A program made the translations under genes and the position numbers. Positions 3,134 to 26,466 of a stretch of 41,739 nt of DNA are shown here, piece after piece. Under the pieces are notes generated by a model. That model did no database searches. It was not told the DNA's origin and saw only the letters and a program-made list of their open reading frames with translations. The stretch is from a virus: positions 1 to 41,739 of the IMG/VR virus record IMGVR_UViG_3300036846_000629. The stretch is one strand, 5' to 3'. Each line of letters opens with the position of its first letter. The first letter of the stretch is position 1.

Positions 3134-3685
3134 TTACTGCACCATCCACCCTGTGTTGGCGCTATCGTTGAATGGCACTAGGGTTACCCAGGCGTAATTC
3201 GTCGCGATCACATAGCTTGTAAGACCGTCAATGGTTTCGCCCCCTGCTGGCGCGAGCGTGATATTGTTTGTTCCGGCTTGCCCGAGGTCCTTGAATGTCA
3301 GCGGCACGCCGAGGCGGGTGGCTGCCGGTGGCAATGTGCAGGTCGCGGGCGATAAAATCTTGCAGTTGATGATCTGGTCGGTCGCTGACGCCACGATCGG
3401 CGTCGCAGCGACGTAGCGCTGTGTCCGGGTCGGTCCCGGCGGCGCGATCGCAGTGGAAAGACTGCTGAGAGAAATTTTGAAATAGTGTTGAGCGACATCG
3501 TCCCAGCAGAGCAGATAATCGGTCGGTAAATTGGCGGCCGGCGGCACCTGAGTTGCAAAGGCGGCGATCGTAAAGCCGATCGTCCAGATGCCCGAAGTTT
3601 TGTCAATCGTGACCGGCCCGCTGCCCTGCACCAGGGCCGGGAACGGGAATGTCGCGTTGACGCGGATGCGGGCAGGCAATGCCAT
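3134..3685 (-). CDS. 183-aa receptor-binding or tail-fibre protein sharing its N-terminal anchor with the 566-aa tailspike.
   Basis: N-terminus IRVNATFPFPALVQGSGPVTIDKTSGIWTIG compared with IRVNAAFPFPALVQGSGPVTIAKASGVWTVG in ORF 3696..5396. Confidence 0.7.
   Translation of the reverse strand: MALPARIRVNATFPFPALVQGSGPVTIDKTSGIWTIGFTIAAFATQVPPAANLPTDYLLCWDDVAQHYFKISLSSLSTAIAPPGPTRTQRYVAATPIVASATDQIINCKILSPATCTLPPAATRLGVPLTFKDLGQAGTNNITLAPAGGETIDGLTSYVIATNYAWVTLVPFNDSANTGWMVQ
3609..3640. repeat. 32-bp exact repeat GTGACCGGCCCGCTGCCCTGCACCAGGGCCGG, copy 1 of 2 (partner at 5314-5345).
   Basis: Read directly. It encodes the shared N-terminal anchor of the two tail proteins. Confidence 0.9.
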
Positions 3686-3695
3686 TTCAGCCGGC

Positions 3696-5396
3696 CTATG
3701 GCGAAGTTCGAGTCAGTTCATACCAGGCTCCAGAAAGGGCCTGCAGTTGCATCAACGTATTGGCCGTCGGATTGTAATTTACAGAGCCCTTCAAATTGAA
3801 ACTGCCTTGCACCAGCGTCGAATTAGCATCGCCAAAATAGAACGTATAAACTTGCCCCGACACGCCATTGGTAAAATTCGTTATATTGGTCGCAGAACTA
3901 TTGTAAACATAAAATTGACGATCCACTGCGACTGACGGAGTCGCTCCAGCAGAGTTCAACAACGAAAAATCCTTCGGCAGTAAAACAATTCTAGCCCCTG
4001 TCTGTATAGACTGCGGTGTAGTGACGTTATCAAACACATTCGAGTTCAATGGAATTGATACAGAAGCGCCAGACCCGAGAAGAATGCCGGTGCCAAATCC
4101 CTTGATTACATTTCCGGTAATCGTATTATTTGCCGAATTAGACAACGCAATTCCAGTCGCGCCGGAACTGGAGCTGCTCAGCGTGTTGTATGCTATAATA
4201 CAATCCCCTTCCAGATTGGCAGTCCCCGGCTTGAATATACCGGCGGAGCTTCCAGTAATATTCGTTATTATGTTCGACATAATACTAATGCGATTGGTCT
4301 GATCAGCCAAAGTAATACCGTGTGTAGTCGGGTTTTCAACTATGTTATTGTAGACGAAACAATCCTGTGAGCCTCCGTCAATCAGTATTTCTCGCCCGAC
4401 GCTGTCTCTAATGGTTCCGTTGAAGCACCCGAACAGTTCCAAGATGCCCATGCCTGTGCCAGCATTGCATCTTTCTATAATGCAATCTCTGCTGCCTATA
4501 ACAACAATCGGAGCGGTAGGAACGCCAGAGGTGACATTACAATTCTTGACAGTGCCATTCTGAACTAGCTCAAAAACAATACCACCATCGCTAGACTGAA
4601 TTACAGTCAGATCAGAAACACTAACATTGTTTAAAGGCGTACAGACTTGAATCAGCGTCCAATTGATCCCACCTATCGGCAGCGGCTCGACAAGAGTAAT
4701 CACCCCGGTACTGGTATTGACGGCACTTATCTTGGAAAAGAAGGTCGGAAACCAGTAATTACCAGCGAACGGTCCGGTTATGTACGCCGTCTGACCCACA
4801 GAAAAATGTGTAGAGTCTGCCGCCGTGGTAGTCGTAACCGTATTGCCGCCTTCGACCGGAGCATTTATCGCATAAGTTGTTCCAGTCGAAGTGCCATAGG
4901 CAATTACACCCATATTGTTAGGTGATAATGCAGCCCCGGTGTTCTTGATGAACGTAGAGCCTACACCAGACCCCTGCACGCTGACATTAGAAATCAAGCT
5001 GACTGCACTGGATATATTATAGGTGCCCGGAGGAAAAAAGACAGTGCCTCCAGTCAAAGACAACGATTGGATAGCGTTATTAATTGCAGTATAATCATCA
5101 GCAATGCCGTCGCCAACGGCACCATAACTCTTGACATTAATCATAGGTGCAGGTGCGCCTGCAAGATTGCTTACCGCAATCTTCGAGTATGTTCCGGCGA
5201 CACCATCAAAGATCAGAACATATTGATGCGATGAACTCGGCGGGGTCGGCGTGATCGCGCCGAATTGATCGATCGAGTGTCCGACTGTCCAGACGCCGCT
5301 GGCCTTGGCGATGGTGACCGGCCCGCTGCCCTGCACCAGGGCCGGAAATGGAAACGCGGCGTTGACGCGGATATCGGCGGGAAATTGGCTGCTCAT
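3696..5396 (-). CDS. Tailspike / depolymerase with a pectate-lyase-type right-handed beta-helix, 566 aa.
   Basis: VKSYGAVGDGIADDYTAINNAIQS motif typical of pectate_lyase_3 / tailspike caps. Many N-x-x-I/V rungs. Shared anchor N-terminus. Confidence 0.75.
   Translation of the reverse strand: MSSQFPADIRVNAAFPFPALVQGSGPVTIAKASGVWTVGHSIDQFGAITPTPPSSSHQYVLIFDGVAGTYSKIAVSNLAGAPAPMINVKSYGAVGDGIADDYTAINNAIQSLSLTGGTVFFPPGTYNISSAVSLISNVSVQGSGVGSTFIKNTGAALSPNNMGVIAYGTSTGTTYAINAPVEGGNTVTTTTAADSTHFSVGQTAYITGPFAGNYWFPTFFSKISAVNTSTGVITLVEPLPIGGINWTLIQVCTPLNNVSVSDLTVIQSSDGGIVFELVQNGTVKNCNVTSGVPTAPIVVIGSRDCIIERCNAGTGMGILELFGCFNGTIRDSVGREILIDGGSQDCFVYNNIVENPTTHGITLADQTNRISIMSNIITNITGSSAGIFKPGTANLEGDCIIAYNTLSSSSSGATGIALSNSANNTITGNVIKGFGTGILLGSGASVSIPLNSNVFDNVTTPQSIQTGARIVLLPKDFSLLNSAGATPSVAVDRQFYVYNSSATNITNFTNGVSGQVYTFYFGDANSTLVQGSFNLKGSVNYNPTANTLMQLQALSGAWYELTRTSP
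5314..5345. repeat. 32-bp exact repeat, copy 2 of 2 (partner at 3609-3640).
   Basis: Read directly. Confidence 0.9.
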
Positions 5397-9882: not shown

Positions 9883-10163
9883 GGTGAATTGGCTCTTCTA
9901 TCCCTTTCCTTGGCCCTCCATTCATCGCGGTCTCTAATGCAATGCACGTCGATCGGGGCTGGATTGGCGCTGGTTCCAAGCAGTTCTCTCACTTCCTTTA
10001 GCGAAACATAGCCAAAGTTAGGTGCTCTCCATAACTCTCCGTCTGAGGCCGCGCGCACTTCGCCAACGGTTCTATAATCTCGCTCCAATCGGTTTTTCGC
10101 CCGCATTGACAGCTCCCACAGTTCACTGACCGGGAAGTCATCATCATATGTCTCGATTGTCAT
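9861..10163 (-). CDS. 100-aa protein resembling the RNA polymerase alpha-subunit C-terminal domain (helix-hairpin-helix).
   Basis: ELSMRAKNRLERDYRTVGEVRAASDGELWRAPNFGYVSLKEVRELL aligns with E. coli RpoA [48 protein letters not shown]. Confidence 0.6.
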   Translation of the reverse strand: MTIETYDDDFPVSELWELSMRAKNRLERDYRTVGEVRAASDGELWRAPNFGYVSLKEVRELLGTSANPAPIDVHCIRDRDEWRAKERDRRANSPWYEFCL

Positions 10164-10172
10164 CTTGTATCC

Positions 10173-10388
10173 TCAGGCATGGAACGTCGGAACGTGAATT
10201 CCGGCCATGCCGAGCAGTACAATGATGAACCATATGGCCACGACGGCGACGAGGACGACGAGCAGCACGCGCAGGATGGTGCGGAACGGCTCGGCGAGCG
10301 GGATGAGCGGCAGCAGCTGCTGGATCGCCCAGTAGACGACGCCGCAAACGATGACCAGCAGGATCAGGCCGATGATGGTGCCAATCAT
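10173..10388 (-). CDS. Small membrane protein, 71 aa, two predicted TM helices.
   Basis: MIGTIIGLILLVIVCGVVYWAI ... LLVVLVAVVAIWFIIVLLGMAG. Confidence 0.6.
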   Translation of the reverse strand: MIGTIIGLILLVIVCGVVYWAIQQLLPLIPLAEPFRTILRVLLVVLVAVVAIWFIIVLLGMAGIHVPTFHA

Positions 10389-10687
10389 GGCGGGCCCTCT
10401 AGGGCCATTTCAAATATTTCCCGTTCAGTGAGGTCAATTGCGGTCGTAATGATACGCTCTTCTTCGCGCCGAAGATGATGATATCCAACCATCCAGAATG
10501 CCCTGAGCGGTCCGGCAAAATCTACCGATGGGGGCCCCTGAGTCCAATTTCTACCGTTAGGACAGCACGCACGGCGCCCATATTTTCCGCGTCGCCCGTC
10601 TCGATTGAGACAATTTCCGGGACGATTGGCCCAACGGTTCTTTAGTCCAAAACGCCCATTGTCATCACGATCCATGGATGCCTCCAA
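10385..10687 (-). CDS. Hypothetical 100-aa basic protein.
   Basis: ORF track. ATGA overlap with the downstream ORF. It is the first gene after a divergent intergenic region. Confidence 0.45.
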   Translation of the reverse strand: MEASMDRDDNGRFGLKNRWANRPGNCLNRDGRRGKYGRRACCPNGRNWTQGPPSVDFAGPLRAFWMVGYHHLRREEERIITTAIDLTEREIFEMALEGPP

Positions 10688-22066: not shown

Positions 22067-23243
22067 CAGCCAAGCGCTCGTCCATATGATTGAGCGGGTT
22101 GCGCGGGACGTATCATTTCCGATCGATCGGCTGGAAAAGATGATGGAAATGCACGAGCGCGTCACTCTGCGAAATGCGGAGGCGAGCTGGAACGAGGCCA
22201 TGGCTGCGGCGCAATCCGAAATTTCCGTGGTCGGGTTCGACTCCAATAATCCGCAAACGCGCAGCCGCTACGCAAGCTATGCATCCATGGATGCCGTTGT
22301 CAGGCCGATTTACACAAAATACGGGTTTGCTCTTACGTTCGGAACGGATTCCGCTCAGAGAGTGGATGATGTCACTATTACTTGCACCGTCTCGAAGGGC
22401 GGATATTCCAAGCATTACAGCATTTCCATGCCCGCGGATGGCAAAGGCGCCAGGGGCAACGAGGTAATGACGAGGACGCATGCGACTGGATCGGCCGTAA
22501 CGTATGGTCGCCGGTACTTGCTCTCGATGATCTTCAACATTGCATGCGGCGAGGTCGACGATGATGGCAATCTGGCCGGAAAGTATCAAACGGCCAGAGC
22601 CCGTAACAGTGATATTGCAAAGTTGCCTCCCGACAAGCGCGGCGCGGCGACCGAATACGCCCACGAGGTTGACGCCGAACGTATAGGCCAAGGCATGATA
22701 AATGCAGCTCGTGCTGTTCCCCGGCCGGCTACCGAAACGGAGACGGATGGGGCAAGAGAAAGATTCTGGAATAAAAATCGAAAGACCCCTGCCGTCATCC
22801 CGCCCCATGACGAGGACGGCGTCATCATCGAGCAACCTACCGACCGCTCGGCCGCGCTTCAATACATATGCGTGACGCGCGATGTGATCCGCACCGCGCA
22901 CGATCCGGACAAACTGACGTCATGGCTCAATAGTCCCGAGCAGAAACAAGAACGACAAAAAGCTAAGCTCACGGATGAGGAACTGATATCGCTCAGAGAT
23001 TTTGCCGCCGCGCGCAAGGCGCAGCTCAAAGCCGCCAACGGTAATGGTGTCCCCAGCCATGAAGACACGGAGGCATTTTACAGGTACGTGACCGCAAAAA
23101 TGGTGGCAGCCAAGGATAAGGATGAATTGGCAAATGTGTATGCGGCCATTGTCGAGCCAGTGGAAAGCAAGATGTTCCCGCCCGATGTCACTGCGTTGAC
23201 TGATGCCTATGCCCGACGGGAACGGCAACTGAAAGACGAATAA
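22011..23243 (+). CDS. erf: ERF-family single-strand annealing recombinase, 410 aa.
   Basis: RYASYASMDAVVRPIYTKYGFAL...HATGSAVTYGRRYLLSMIFNIACGEVDDDGN, the ERF core signature. Confidence 0.8.
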   Translation: MNTQITTQQITHAGTLPTDSQALVHMIERVARDVSFPIDRLEKMMEMHERVTLRNAEASWNEAMAAAQSEISVVGFDSNNPQTRSRYASYASMDAVVRPIYTKYGFALTFGTDSAQRVDDVTITCTVSKGGYSKHYSISMPADGKGARGNEVMTRTHATGSAVTYGRRYLLSMIFNIACGEVDDDGNLAGKYQTARARNSDIAKLPPDKRGAATEYAHEVDAERIGQGMINAARAVPRPATETETDGARERFWNKNRKTPAVIPPHDEDGVIIEQPTDRSAALQYICVTRDVIRTAHDPDKLTSWLNSPEQKQERQKAKLTDEELISLRDFAAARKAQLKAANGNGVPSHEDTEAFYRYVTAKMVAAKDKDELANVYAAIVEPVESKMFPPDVTALTDAYARRERQLKDE

Positions 23244-23254
23244 TGACCGCTCTC

Positions 23255-23319
23255 CTCGTCGCGCCGCGACGCGGCTCACCGCTCCGCCCCGCCCCGCTCC
23301 GCTCCGCCCCGCTACGTCC
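23255..23319 (+). repeat. (CGCNN)n array unit 0: 13 phased pentamers between erf and the 199-aa gene.
   Basis: CTCGT CGCGC CGCGA CGCGG CTCAC CGCTC CGCCC CGCCC CGCTC CGCTC CGCCC CGCTA CGTCC. Confidence 0.9.
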
Positions 23320-23337
23320 ATAACGGAGGACCCAAAC

Positions 23338-23937
23338 ATGCCCATCATCGTAAATTTTGTTATCACAGGCATCGCGTCGTACAGCCAATCAAAGCCGCAC
23401 CTTTCCGATATGCAGCCGAACGAGTCGCACGACGATTACCGGCAGCGTACATGGCGAGCGCATCTCCATGTCGACCGCGACAAGAAGGTGTTCATCCCGC
23501 CTTCCGCAATCAAAAACTGCCTGTCAGAGGGTGCCAAGTTCATGAATATCGGAGTTCCGGGCAAAGGCAAGGCAACGTATACGAAACACTTCGAGGCGGG
23601 GCTCGCTGTGATCAAGCCGATCTCGCTAGGCATATTGGCCAAGGATGTAGAGAGCGAAACCTTGTTTCTGCCTGCCGACGGTCGCCGCGGGAGCGGGAAG
23701 AGAGTATGGAAAACCTATCCGGTCCTCCCGTCATGGGAAGGAAAAGTGGAGGTCATTGTCCTTGACGAAACTTGCCTGCACACATCGCAGCGTACCGGCA
23801 ACACGATCTTGCAGGATGTATGTGAGGGCAGCGGGCAGTATATCGGCCTCGGCCGGTTCAGACCGCGAAACAATGGCCACTATGGACGGTTTGTCATCAA
23901 GGATTTTGTCGTCAATGCGATGGCATCTGCAGCATGA
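23338..23937 (+). CDS. Orphan 199-aa protein flanked by pentanucleotide arrays.
   Basis: GGAGGA RBS. MPIIVNFVITGIASYSQSKPHLSD... I recognise no family. Confidence 0.7.
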   Translation: MPIIVNFVITGIASYSQSKPHLSDMQPNESHDDYRQRTWRAHLHVDRDKKVFIPPSAIKNCLSEGAKFMNIGVPGKGKATYTKHFEAGLAVIKPISLGILAKDVESETLFLPADGRRGSGKRVWKTYPVLPSWEGKVEVIVLDETCLHTSQRTGNTILQDVCEGSGQYIGLGRFRPRNNGHYGRFVIKDFVVNAMASAA

Positions 23938-24371
23938 GCTTTGCGGCGCGACGCATCGCAGCACCGCGCCCCGCCGCGCAACGCGGCACTCCGCGCCGCA
24001 ACGCGTCGCCGCACATCGCCACGCATCACACCGCAACGAAAGTCCCTGGCCACATGAGCTTCACGCCGCATCGCTGCGTACCGCTACGCCGCACTCCGCG
24101 TCGCATCGCGTCGCAGTACCCCGCGCCGCTGTGCCCCGCAGCGCAACGCATCACACCGCAACGCAACGAAAGTTCCCGGAGCTGGCCACATGAACTTCTC
24201 GCCGCGGTGCCCCGCCCCGCTCCGCTCCGCCGCGCCCCGCTCCGCGTCGCAGTGCACCGCGTCGCCCCGCAGCGCTCCGCTCCGTACCGCTCCGCGTCGC
24301 CACGTTTCGCGCCACCCTGTGGCGCGCCGCAGCACACCGCATCGCTTCGCATCGCAACGAAAGGTTCGCAC
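23933..24371 (+). repeat. Three tandem (CGCNN)n units with heads at 23933, 24053 and 24189. Phased cores at 23947-24041, 24067-24171 and 24203-24362.
   Basis: Hand-parsed: 19, 21 and 32 pentamers in unbroken register. Each unit starts CATGA(G/A)CTT and ends CGCAACGAAAG. Confidence 0.9.
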
Positions 24372-24866
24372 ATGAAACCCACACTAGAATTGAGCGCCGA
24401 CACGCAACGGCTCATCGACTTCCTGGTCTCCCGCGACAGGGCAACCTATGCTGAGATGTCATCGGCCACCGGCCGGAACATCGAAGGCCGCGACCGCTAT
24501 GTCCTGTCCAGCGCGCGACGTGTATTGGAAAAACAGCGTGGCATTGTCTTTGCGGCCGAGCGCGGGGTCGGAGTCGTCCGCGCCACCAACACCCAAGTTG
24601 CTACCCTGGCAACCATCCATCCAATCAACAGGATCAGACGGGCAACCAGCGTCGCGCAGAAACGTCAGGAGCAGGTCAACATTCAGGCCCTTACGGCTGA
24701 TGACCGATTGGCGTTCGACATCGGCCGCAGCGTGATTTCCGCCATCCGCAGCAACACTTCGCAGTCGCTCCGCACCAGATTGCGGGAGGAGATCGAGAGG
24801 CGGGACGGCGGCATCGTCAACATCACCAGCGTTCTGGCGTTGCCGCGCCACCAAAAAAGAGCGTGA
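24372..24866 (+). CDS. Orphan 164-aa protein flanked on both sides by pentanucleotide arrays.
   Basis: AAAGG RBS, ATG 24372. MKPTLELSADTQRLIDFLVSRDRATYAEMSSATG... The composition is normal, unlike the 146 upstream codons of track ORF 23934..24866. Confidence 0.65.
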   Translation: MKPTLELSADTQRLIDFLVSRDRATYAEMSSATGRNIEGRDRYVLSSARRVLEKQRGIVFAAERGVGVVRATNTQVATLATIHPINRIRRATSVAQKRQEQVNIQALTADDRLAFDIGRSVISAIRSNTSQSLRTRLREEIERRDGGIVNITSVLALPRHQKRA

Positions 24867-25250
24867 GCTTTGCGATGCTCAGCAGTGCAGCGCGCCGCCC
24901 CGTCCTGCAACGCGGCTCATCGCAGCGCTTCGCGCCGCCCCGCATCGCGACGCGGCTCACCGCACCACCACGCGCCGCAACGCTACGCTTCGCGTCGCTC
25001 CGCATTGCGCCGCTCCGCAGCGCTCCGCTCCGCAACGCAACGCAACGCAACGTAATACAGGGGGCACCATGAGCTTCACGTCGCGCCACGCCGCGCCGCT
25101 CCGCCGTGCACTGCTCCGCAACGCATCTCGTCGCATCGCATCGCACCGCATCGCTGCGCTCTGCCACGCATCGCGACGCTGCACGCCGCAGCACCCCTCG
25201 GCTCTTCGCATCGCTCCGCTCCGCAACGCAACGCAACGCAACGTAAAGAC
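24862..25250 (+). repeat. Two tandem (CGCNN)n units with heads at 24862 and 25068. Phased cores at 24891-25055 and 25082-25246, each ending in (CGCAA)4 CGTAA.
   Basis: Hand-parsed: 33 + 33 pentamers. The printed 10-nt blocks from 24891 to 25051 all begin cgc or cgt. Confidence 0.9.
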
Positions 25251-25261
25251 ATGAGGGCAGC

Positions 25262-25657
25262 ATGACCGGATTATCTCCTCCGGATATCCCGGACGACCGT
25301 CTGCTGACGCTCCAGGATGCCTGCGACCTGCTGTTCGGTAATCAGATCAAGGTCGCCACGCTGCGCTCGGAGATCGACCGTGGCAACCTGACAGTGTTCC
25401 GCATCGGCAGGCGCTTCTTCACCACCCCCCAGCAAATCCGCGAGATGGTCCAAAAATGCCGCGTCCACGGTCCCCTGCGAGGCTCGTCCTCGATCGCATC
25501 AGACGCGAGTGGATTATCCGAGACGGAACGTATTTCGGCCGCACAGGCTGCCCTGAAAATGACGTTGGAGGGGCTCAAGGGGCGCTTGCCAAATACATCG
25601 GCAACAAGTACCGCCCGGCCCCTACTCCGACGCCGTCGATTGCCGATGTCCTCCTAG
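25262..25657 (+). CDS. Excisionase / AlpA-like HTH protein, 131 aa. The C-terminal 67 codons overlap int out of frame.
   Basis: LLTLQDACDLLFGNQIKVATLRSEIDRGNLTVFRIGRRFFTTPQQIREMV. GAGGG RBS. Confidence 0.55.
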   Translation: MTGLSPPDIPDDRLLTLQDACDLLFGNQIKVATLRSEIDRGNLTVFRIGRRFFTTPQQIREMVQKCRVHGPLRGSSSIASDASGLSETERISAAQAALKMTLEGLKGRLPNTSATSTARPLLRRRRLPMSS

Positions 25658-26466
25658 CCTATAGCCGGGAGCACGTGCCACATAAACGCTCCGCAAGCAA
25701 GATTGTGCATACCATCGCCAACCTGGCGCGATGGTGGGGCGACAAACGGCTCGCCGATGTCACGGCCCGGACCTGCCGGGCCTATGCCGCCGAACGACCT
25801 CCGGTGGCTGCCCGCCGCGATCTGGAAACGCTGCGGGCCGCGATCCGATACTGGCATCGCGAATACGGTCCTTTGCCGTCGATCCCATTCGTGGTGCTCC
25901 CGGACAAGCCAGCGGCACGGGAGCGCTGGCTGACCCGCGAGGAGGCGGCACGCCTGCTATGGGCTGCCCGTGATGTCGAGCACCTGCGCCGGTTCGTCCT
26001 TCTCGGCCTCTACACCGGCAGCCGCGCCGGGGCGATCTTGGGCGCGCGCTGGGACTGGATCGACCTCGACACCGGCCTGATGCGGCGACGGGCTCCTGGG
26101 GCCACCGAGAGTACCAAGCGCACACCGCCGATCCGGCTGGCAGCTGGCATCCTCGCTCACGTGCGCCGCTGGTGGCGGATCGATGCCATGTCCGTTGGCA
26201 ATGAGCCGGAACTCATCCGCCCCCTGTTCATCTGCCATTACAATGGCGGCCAGGTCATCAAGCTTCGCCGCTCTTGGCAGGCCGCAGTCGGCCGTGCCGG
26301 CCTCGACGGCAAGGTTACGCCCCATACCCTACGTCATACCCGCGCCACCTGGCTCATGCGCGACGGCGTCAATATTTGGGATGCCGCACAGCAGCTCGGC
26401 ATGTCGGCAATCATCCTGGAGCGCACCTACGGCCATCATCAAGCCGACTATCAGATACGGAAATGA
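25456..26466 (+). CDS. int: Tyrosine recombinase / phage integrase, 336 aa.
   Basis: HTLRHTRATWLMRDG and LERTYGHH catalytic motifs. N-terminal ARLVLDRIRREWIIRDGTYFGRTGC...ALAKYI arm-binding-type region. Confidence 0.9.
   Translation: MPRPRSPARLVLDRIRREWIIRDGTYFGRTGCPENDVGGAQGALAKYIGNKYRPAPTPTPSIADVLLAYSREHVPHKRSASKIVHTIANLARWWGDKRLADVTARTCRAYAAERPPVAARRDLETLRAAIRYWHREYGPLPSIPFVVLPDKPAARERWLTREEAARLLWAARDVEHLRRFVLLGLYTGSRAGAILGARWDWIDLDTGLMRRRAPGATESTKRTPPIRLAAGILAHVRRWWRIDAMSVGNEPELIRPLFICHYNGGQVIKLRRSWQAAVGRAGLDGKVTPHTLRHTRATWLMRDGVNIWDAAQQLGMSAIILERTYGHHQADYQIRK

Follow-up and report, generated by a model that had tools for sequence, protein, structure and literature searches.

This study concerns a cluster of pentanucleotide arrays at positions 23243-25261 of the IMG/VR virus record IMGVR_UViG_3300036846_000629, of which the whole stretch of 41,739 nucleotides (nt) was analysed and is referred to as the window. 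We are highly confident that this region is a VIPR (Viral Interference Programmable Repeat) locus in the early-left operon of a temperate phage, and its pentamer arrays are very probably the guide-RNA arrays of a phage VIPR system on a CGC scaffold. Since this kind of system was already described in 2026, the locus is not categorically new; it is an uncharacterised member of VIPR with a variant scaffold. It adds to VIPR a well-populated branch with a different scaffold triplet, and indicates that such systems can be recognised in raw sequence read without aids.

VIPR is a minimal, CRISPR-like means of recognising and silencing DNA with RNA guides. In the systems described so far, the vipr gene encodes a RAMP of ~20 kDa and is adjoined by an accessory gene, vap, while the vrRNAs consist of 9-16 YNNGG repeats, with a conserved GGY and a hypervariable NN, and an invariant 3' tail (10.64898/2026.04.26.720920; 10.64898/2026.04.26.720927). 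One Vipr protomer is accommodated per 5-nt repeat in a helical filament, in which GGY is sequestered and NN is presented (10.64898/2026.04.26.720927), and the NN pair with double-stranded DNA (dsDNA) with every third base skipped (10.64898/2026.04.26.720920; 10.64898/2026.04.26.720927). In nature these systems are directed at satellites, at prophages and at one another, and the target is silenced transcriptionally; seven types are distinguished, with NNNGG, YNNNG and NNNNG given as further classes of repeat, and the discoverers propose VIPR as the ancestor of CRISPR RAMPs (10.64898/2026.04.26.720920; 10.64898/2026.04.26.720927). The reference loci are those of Escherichia phage SUSP1 and of a Pseudomonas fulva prophage (type II) (10.64898/2026.04.26.720920; 10.64898/2026.04.26.720927), and the arrays of SUSP1 have been sequenced as small RNAs bound by Vipr (10.64898/2026.04.26.720920).

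The window shares with SUSP1 a vipr gene for a RAMP of ~200 residues with thumb and G-loop, co-oriented arrays to either side of the genes, and a location in a phage or prophage. A small adjoining gene for a putative DNA-binding protein may be the counterpart of the accessory gene, and the conserved segment 3' of the arrays that of the invariant tail. Its 5-nt repeat is likewise composed of a conserved triplet ending in a pyrimidine and a hypervariable NN, and the Vipr family to which it belongs shares matches to foreign coding DNA with a 1-nt skip at the wobble position, as well as guides against competing mobile elements, VIPR systems among them. If the homology with SUSP1 and P. fulva is followed, the arrays would be transcribed with the operon, Vipr protomers would polymerise along each array, one per pentamer, and each protomer pair would sequester C-G-C (instead of G-G-Y) and expose two variable bases. 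The exposed NN would then pair with dsDNA as NNx NNx NNx, one base being skipped per repeat, usually the codon wobble, and the filament would remain on the target and block transcription of the competing mobile element. For vrRNA expression and processing, filament formation, silencing and the real targets, we infer this course of events by analogy with the characterised systems.

Periodic tracts and their anatomy

The original prediction, which a model had made from the letters of the window, described six tracts in which a CGC triplet recurs every 5 nt, and all six were found to be present with their register kept. Pentamers that begin with CG number 11 of 13 at 23255-23319, 15 of 19 at 23947-24041, 17 of 21 at 24067-24171, 28 of 33 at 24891-25055 and 24 of 33 at 25082-25246, exactly as had been counted; the tract at 24203-24362 does comprise 32 pentamers, of which 27 and not the claimed 26 are CG-initial. 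The composition given for 25082-25246 (C 47 %, G 24 %) was reproduced, and the statement that positions 4-5 of the pentamer are free was correct and proved to be the decisive one, these NN being the informative bases.

A period-5 peak had been expected in the gaps alone. When the Fourier check was run, strong power was confined to the array region: the CGC period-5 power exceeded 10 only for 150-nt segments starting at 23976-24251 and at 24851-25151, against a window-wide median of 0.75. The pattern (CGCNN)5CGC occurs 15 times in the window and 0 times in 100 dinucleotide-preserving shuffles. Tandem Repeats Finder likewise confined arrays of period 5/10/15 to the array region and reported no CRISPR repeat-spacer array, and there are no comparable tracts elsewhere in the 41.7-kb window. 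Between erf, the gene of 199 residues (p199), the gene of 164 residues (p164) and the xis-like gene, the tracts occupy 755 of the 923 intergenic bases.

Two regularities of the six array units (U0 to U5, Table 1) had gone unnoted. In five units the register starts immediately 3' of a conserved leader, C(A/G)TGAGCTT, and the 3' end of a unit is formed by (CGCAA)n-CG[AT]AA, U0 having no CGCAA tail. An assembly artefact is excluded as the source of the tracts, because the same architecture is found in more than 200 independent contigs and because an identical 445-nt array was assembled separately in two relatives, L121 (JGI) and L122 (Logan), loci being designated here by L numbers. The array in question (L121 7067-7511, equal to L122 5088-5532) is one phase-locked tract of 89 pentamers without a linker, situated between vipr and vap, and it far exceeds the length of any described vrRNA. 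Searches of Rfam at gathering thresholds with the window and five other loci returned nothing; a known RNA family or ribozyme was considered and rejected, the permissive Rfam mode having given chance sub-threshold microRNA matches only.

The composition of the tracts brings in a different explanation, in which they are C-rich, unstructured RNA for Rho utilisation, anti-termination or the loading of a protein other than by guides, setting the polarity from erf to int with no targeting involved. The transcribed strand is indeed biased over the tracts (C 45-58 % against G 24-27 %; the flanking genes have ~26-34 % C), the linker regions are without stable structure, and the arrays lie within an operon in which no promoters or terminators were found inside the window arrays. 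Rho, however, does not need a strict 5-nt phase, and such a role would leave unexplained the obligate association with a Cas7-like RAMP, the family members with G-rich triplets (GGC, GAC) and the matches of NN strings to foreign genes under the 1-nt-skip code, all of which are described below. We regard this explanation as highly improbable.

The proteins encoded beside the arrays

The protein p199 is a Cas7-like RAMP in minimal form and a relative of the SUSP1 Vipr, the structure of which has been solved. The profile of its family matches one solved structure, PDB 36pp ('SUSP1 Vipr protein'), at E=2.8e-4, and comparison with the full SUSP1 Vipr using hhalign gave a probability of 94.9 % (E=4e-8) over the region from thumb to G-loop, the two proteins being remotely similar and alignable over ~74 C-terminal columns. 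The AlphaFold2 (AF2) model has a pLDDT (predicted local distance difference test) score of 90; the top 50 Foldseek matches in the PDB are all Cas7-family RAMPs (Csm3, Cmr4, type VII Cas7 and Cas7-11), with E-values down to 5e-7, and the best matches in BFVD include a phage protein named 'Cas system-associated RAMP' (TM 0.64). The thumb hairpin is predicted at about residues 105-130. The G-loop, G170-L-G-R-F-R-P-R-N-N-G-H-Y-G-R-F185, appears in the alignment as GLGRFRPRNNGHYGRF opposite GVGDWRPRFGRF of SUSP1, so that F174 and R175 align with W178 and R179, of which the former stacks on G2 and the latter makes a cation-pi interaction on Y3 (10.64898/2026.04.26.720927). p199 matches phrog_4652, whereas no Pfam domain was found in p199 or p164 and both are annotated as 'hypothetical'. 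In the annotated phage collection, no phage shares the array region at the DNA level and there are two distant protein matches to p199 only.

It had been suggested that an oligomeric filament protein reads triplets spaced by 2 nt on RNA, by analogy with TRAP, and the 199-residue protein had been named among the candidates for binding. The analogy was right in spirit, as it matches the Vipr filament (10.64898/2026.04.26.720927), and the candidate is now identified by profile, hhalign and Foldseek as a Vipr-type RAMP. TRAP also is a protein oligomer reading an RNA triplet at 5-nt spacing, (G/U)AG-NN, with free spacer bases; it is, however, an 11-mer ring that reads 11 repeats in attenuation control with uninformative spacers, whereas the window has a RAMP, longer tracts and informative spacers. 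The likeness to class 1 CRISPR-Cas systems (Cas7/Csm3/Cmr4) lies in the RAMP fold, in protomers polymerising along a guide RNA and in a thumb that flips bases periodically. The window differs in lacking CRISPR repeats and spacers, genes for adaptation (Cas1/Cas2) and any large or small subunit, and the period in those systems is 6 nt with 1 flipped, as against 5 nt with 3 sequestered in VIPR, where the guide information is non-contiguous.

The second protein, p164, has a predicted winged-helix fold and may correspond to Vap, the accessory protein of SUSP1. Its AF2 model (pLDDT 71) has the topology H-b-H-H-b-b, and its Foldseek matches, which are weak (E 0.01-0.1), are almost all to winged-helix DNA binders of the MarR/MecI/AspA kind. 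Its assignment as vap is supported by its conserved position beside vipr.

Distribution of the locus

When IMG/VR was scanned for exact runs of eight CGCNN units, on the DNA pattern alone, at least 119 loci were identified; with the window added to 119 pattern loci, 120 sequences were analysed. A p199 homolog is found in 46 of the 120, in every case on the CGC-top strand, and a p164 homolog in 40, always on the array strand. Clusters of co-oriented tracts are present in many pattern loci, with mixed orientation in 2 of the 120, and the six tracts of the window all have their CGC on the strand that carries the genes. The trio of a Vipr-like gene, a Vap-like gene and co-oriented arrays recurs across dozens of viral contigs as well as in prophages from many phyla, and the module is alike across loci, with variable units followed by CGCAA CGCAA CG.., a linker conserved within the contig and the next tract. 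The SUSP1 locus (L120) carries (GGTNN)12 arrays oriented like vipr, both 5' and 3' of the vipr-vap pair. ERF, for which the arrays had been proposed as a recombination substrate, is encoded in just 5 of the 120 array-bearing sequences, which does not favour that proposal. L017, L105, L038, L070 and other matches to (CGCNN)8 are plain microsatellites in unrelated contigs, some of these from giant viruses, and have no Vipr gene.

The orientation data bear on the alternative that the arrays are dsDNA sites, similar to iterons, centromeres or operators, which p164 or another phage protein would bind with a phase of half a helical turn. The predicted winged-helix fold of p164 and the presence of its homolog alongside the arrays would agree with this, but the strict co-orientation (46/46 and 40/40) is not expected of such sites, the homologous arrays of SUSP1 are small RNAs bound by Vipr (10.64898/2026.04.26.720920), and both the hypervariable NN and their matches to foreign coding sequences would be left unexplained. 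We find this alternative scarcely credible.

A further alternative is that the arrays have no function and are products of mutation, either by slippage of (CGCAA)n or by adenine mutagenesis converting CGCAA to CGCNN in the manner of a diversity-generating retroelement (DGR). CGCAA makes up 44-57 % of units at the second and third positions from the 3' end against 5-10 % at the 5' end, and some unrelated pattern matches, e.g. L017, are plain microsatellites, both of which would be in keeping with such an origin. The CGCAA units, however, belong to the conserved tail, and the triplet is kept at 90-95 % per position over hundreds of tracts (the frequencies over 270 tracts being C.95, G.90, C.92, N, N). 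The DGR-like version was rejected, as none of the genes called in the close relatives that were inspected had a reverse-transcriptase domain and as the triplet shows G-to-A/T and C-to-T variants that adenine mutagenesis would not produce. Altogether, the probability of a mutational origin without function is practically negligible.

Comparison of closely related loci shows how the arrays change. In pairs whose Vipr proteins are 97-98.5 % identical (L012/L061 and L018/L029), the number and lengths of the arrays and the NN strings differ, and shared blocks are partial. Evolution of the tracts as ordinary codons with a conserved peptide had been named as an outcome that would speak against the periodic arrays; it was looked for and the result was negative, since loci with such similar Vipr proteins differ in array number, lengths and NN.

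The same comparison is relevant to the proposal that the arrays function through their translation or their peptides, as micro-ORFs (open reading frames) beginning MSF..., of 26-69 residues, with Arg/Ala/Pro-rich x-R-x-A-x repeats and coupled through ATGA. In its support, start and stop codons overlap (TAATG, ATGA or GTGA) at each boundary of the window arrays, and sense stop codons are scarce in 97 CGC-type linkers, 40 as compared to 88 +/- 8 in shuffled linkers and 133 in antisense, 71 of the 97 being stop-free in every frame; as linkers within a locus are paralogous, the effective sample is smaller than 97. On the other hand, none of the sense frames of a perfect (CGCNN)n tract can hold a stop codon (its codon types are CGC, NNC, GCN, NCG and CNN) and therefore the many ORFs in the tracts are no evidence of coding. 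Tract lengths step by 5 and not by 3, so frames are not kept; the peptides show no conservation even where the Vipr proteins of two relatives are 97-98 % identical, and match nothing in Pfam or PHROG; the leader of L125 reads ATG ACC TAG, and several linkers of L012 are without any ATG. Coding as the primary function was rejected for want of a conserved peptide and of kept frames, and because freedom from stops is automatic; we consider it very unlikely that peptides or translation are what the arrays are for. As stops are depleted and boundaries overlap, whole array clusters appear open to ribosomes. Stop depletion in the linkers may let ribosomes pass through operon-embedded arrays, and such transit may be a secondary property compatible with the VIPR reading.

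The targeting code of the Vipr family

The 1-nt-skip code was re-derived in silico for the Vipr family of the window. In this test 376 non-redundant guides, from genuine VIPR loci and after complexity filters, were compared with 5.7 million masked positions (both strands counted). With one base skipped per repeat, 33, 14 and 7 hits were obtained at scores of at least 16, 18 and 20, respectively. The corresponding numbers were 4-7, 0-1 and 0 for unit-shuffled guides, 5, 0 and 0 for guides in reversed order, 4, 0 and 0 with no base skipped and 7, 0 and 0 with two bases skipped, while a skip of three returned residual array-to-array homology only. An initial skip test on all pattern matches had been discarded, as microsatellite artefacts produced false 'targets' and shuffled guides scored equally. 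Independent strong matches under the 1-nt skip reach 24/24, 25/26 and 23/24 bases.

The best guide is one of L128 (10568-10677), which lies directly 3' of its vipr gene (10001-10543). It spells the Vipr G-loop RPRNNGYYGRF at codon positions 1-2 and has matches in the vipr of over 20 further loci, reaching 24/24 bases in L007 (10055-10090). The vipr gene of L128 itself also codes for this peptide, but each of the three Arg codons is taken from the alternative family (CGN for AGR or the reverse), which amounts to 5 mismatches, and it escapes its own guide because of this swap. From the sequences, this looks like discrimination of self from non-self through synonymous recoding.

In L078, the tract at 2224-2303 matches L028 at 3666-3704 with 25/26 bases. 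The target is a gene for 502 residues that is flanked by arrays, and the two loci are related (Vipr 93 % identical), making this another case of VIPR-versus-VIPR targeting.

With NN carrying targeting information under the 1-nt skip, the other roles that had been put forward for the arrays, namely a nucleation or loading array that controls the phage's xis/int, a replication origin, an ERF substrate, a decoy, a Rho rut site and phasing on helix faces, are unsupported.

Guides of the window and a possible target, integrase box II

For decoding, the NN strings were read as codon positions 1-2 with the wobble base skipped. On the complementary strand, U2 (24067-24171) decodes to [FL][FL]V[IM][FL]LG[HQ]AGLT[IM]T[DE]R[Y*]V[HQ][IM]A, in which the tyrosine-integrase box II motif LGHAGLT.T.RYV is recognised. 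The peptide aligns to positions 151-168 of 172 in PF00589, the box II segment with the catalytic tyrosine, at E=0.041, and it is the sole one among ten decoded window peptides with a Pfam match; in PHROGs it matches the integrase phrog_216 at E=0.014. In a tblastn search of phages and plasmids, the listed matches, where named, are in integrase genes, with 52-71 % identity. The box II pattern, which was defined after seeing the result, is compatible with 5 of 300,000 unit-shuffles of U2. The match uses at least 19 units, longer than the reported 9-16. In the integrase that this phage itself encodes, box II is divergent and reads LGMSAIILERTYGHH.

On this sequence evidence, U2 may be aimed at box II of the tyrosine integrases of competing elements, in which case the targeted integrase genes would encode ...LGHAGLTMTERYVHIA... 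The decoded guides would then point to what temperate phages fight over, which is integrase box II in the window and rival vipr genes in a relative.

Scaffold triplets and the Vipr residues that track them

When period-5 arrays were detected beside genes of the p199 family by a method free of any motif, 164 loci including the window were obtained (L121-L233 being a vipr homolog with 3 kb on either side). The scaffold triplets detected in these loci include CGC (82), GGC (36), GAC (15), GTC (3), CTC (3), GTT (2) and CAC, ATT and AGT (1 each). The third base of the triplet is a pyrimidine in all arrays of the family, NN is always variable, and the users of GGC are relatives at ~50 % identity. 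CGC can be regarded as a scaffold variant because the protein family of the window includes canonical GGY/NN systems. GAC, GTC ('YNNGN') and CTC fit none of the repeat classes given in the preprint text.

Two positions of Vipr were found to vary with the triplet. Residue 111, at the base of the thumb in the motif F-x-P-x-D-G (window 23668-23670), is V in 48/48 proteins with G-initial triplets and L, A or C in 62/69 CGC-type proteins, and it flips between L and V in 6 of the 7 closest CGC/GGC pairs; the CTC-type proteins are an exception at this position. Residue 173 in the G-loop (window 23854-23856) tracks the middle base, being R with G, F in GAC, S in CTC and Q in CAC. Positions 111 and 173 are thus candidate determinants of triplet choice. 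A change from D177 of SUSP1 to R173 as the cause of the change from G1 to C1 was considered and rejected, R173 being present in both CGC- and GGC-type proteins. As these triplet switches have arisen naturally and go along with changes in the protein, they could be used directly to learn how Vipr holds its RNA and to design VIPR tools that are orthogonal to one another.

If not already covered by the preprints, a broader proposal could be made, which we put forward tentatively and with somewhat less than even confidence. It would comprise a large Vipr clade of very wide taxonomic range, including the window, whose triplet has been repeatedly re-coded (CGC, GGC, GAC, GTC, CTC, CAC, GTT, ATT) in step with Vipr residues, as a 'scaffold code' keeping co-resident VIPR systems orthogonal, and a CGC subtype with 19-33 or more units aimed at conserved catalytic motifs of rivals (integrase box II, the Vipr G-loop), the arrays of this subtype being kept stop-free for a place in translated operons.

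In a clade around L088 (reverse strand), the linker is ~60 nt long and is present in 12 copies, e.g. at oriented coordinates 10161-10235. Each array of this clade is followed by a conserved three-hairpin tail with compensatory changes in 4 pairs and no Rfam match. It may serve as a structured tail of the vrRNA or in RNA processing.

Points that weigh against the VIPR assignment

Several observations count against the reading of the window arrays as VIPR guides. The triplet is CGC (YNNCG in the register of the preprint) and not GGY, and the string 'CGC' is absent from the preprint text, where the classes are YNNGG, NNNGG, YNNNG and NNNNG; CGC fits the class 'YNNNG' of that text, though it is not named there. 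The window tracts have 12-33 units (89 in the relative L121) as against the published 9-16. The tail of SUSP1 is a pseudoknot, whereas that of the window is a short (CGCAA)n-CG[AT]AA with no predicted pseudoknot, and no significant secondary structure was found in the window tails (z-scores of at least 0.4). The comparison of p164 with the Vap of SUSP1 by hhalign reached a probability of 65.6 % (E=5.8e-5).

The evidence on targets includes further points of this kind. No target at the DNA level was found for any window guide in the 5.7 million local positions, in IMG/VR with seeds from all six tracts, or in one metagenome scan. Seeds of 9 units from U1, U2, U3 and U4 gave 0 matches in IMG/VR, seeds of 8 units from U5 and U0 gave only the chance matches of that seed length, and the 9-unit seed of U2 gave 7 seed-only matches in the metagenome collection, below a rough chance estimate. 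The integrase reading of U2 is therefore based on a decoded peptide of 21 residues, for which the hidden Markov model E-values are marginal (0.04 and 0.014), and on a motif test set up after the fact. In the family as a whole, independent guide-target pairs are few (~5), because many of the hits under the 1-nt skip come from one guide.

Organisation of the locus

The features of the locus are collected in Table 1. From erf to the xis-like gene, vipr and the vap-like gene are the sole protein genes. The window arrays differ from those of the described VIPR systems in being embedded in the operon with start/stop overlaps and in having no promoters of their own.

Table 1. Features of the putative VIPR locus, in positions of the window
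Feature	Positions	Strand	Description
U0, vrRNA-like array upstream of vipr	23243..23323	+	leader variant ATGACCGCTCTC; 12-13 CGCNN units; no CGCAA tail; from register parse
vipr, 199 residues, minimal Cas7-like RAMP	23338..23937	+	profile, hhalign, AF2/Foldseek
U1, vrRNA-like unit	23934..24053	+	leader ATGAGCTT; 19 units; tail CGCAA-CGAAA and linker
U2, vrRNA-like unit	24054..24189	+	leader ATGAGCTT; 21 units; tail CGCAA CGCAA CGAAA
U3, vrRNA-like unit	24190..24371	+	leader ATGAACTT; 32 units; tail CGCAA-CGAAAGG
vap-like accessory gene, 164 residues	24372..24866	+	predicted N-terminal winged-helix topology, then long helices
U4, vrRNA-like unit	24863..25068	+	leader GTGAGCTT; 33 units; tail (CGCAA)4-CGTAA
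U5, vrRNA-like unit	25069..25261	+	leader ATGAGCTT; 33 units; tail (CGCAA)4-CGTAA; short linker to start codon of xis-like gene
Leader element of arrays			common string CATGAGCTT
Boundary overlaps	23241-45, 23934-37, 24054-57, 24190-93, 24372-75, 24863-66, 25069-72, 25251-54, 25262-65		start/stop overlaps

Some of these elements serve twice. The TGA in the leader of U1 is the stop codon of vipr, that in the leader of U4 is the stop codon of vap, and the tail of U3 doubles as the ribosome-binding context of the vap-like gene. The relative L125 has a leader, ATGACCTAGCTTT, which is similar to that of U0.

No tRNA gene was found anywhere in the window and the attachment site is therefore not an obvious tRNA. 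The xis-like ORF (25262-25657, 131 residues, no Pfam match) overlaps the integrase ORF (25456-26466) by ~200 nt in another frame, and therefore one of the two start sites is probably miscalled.

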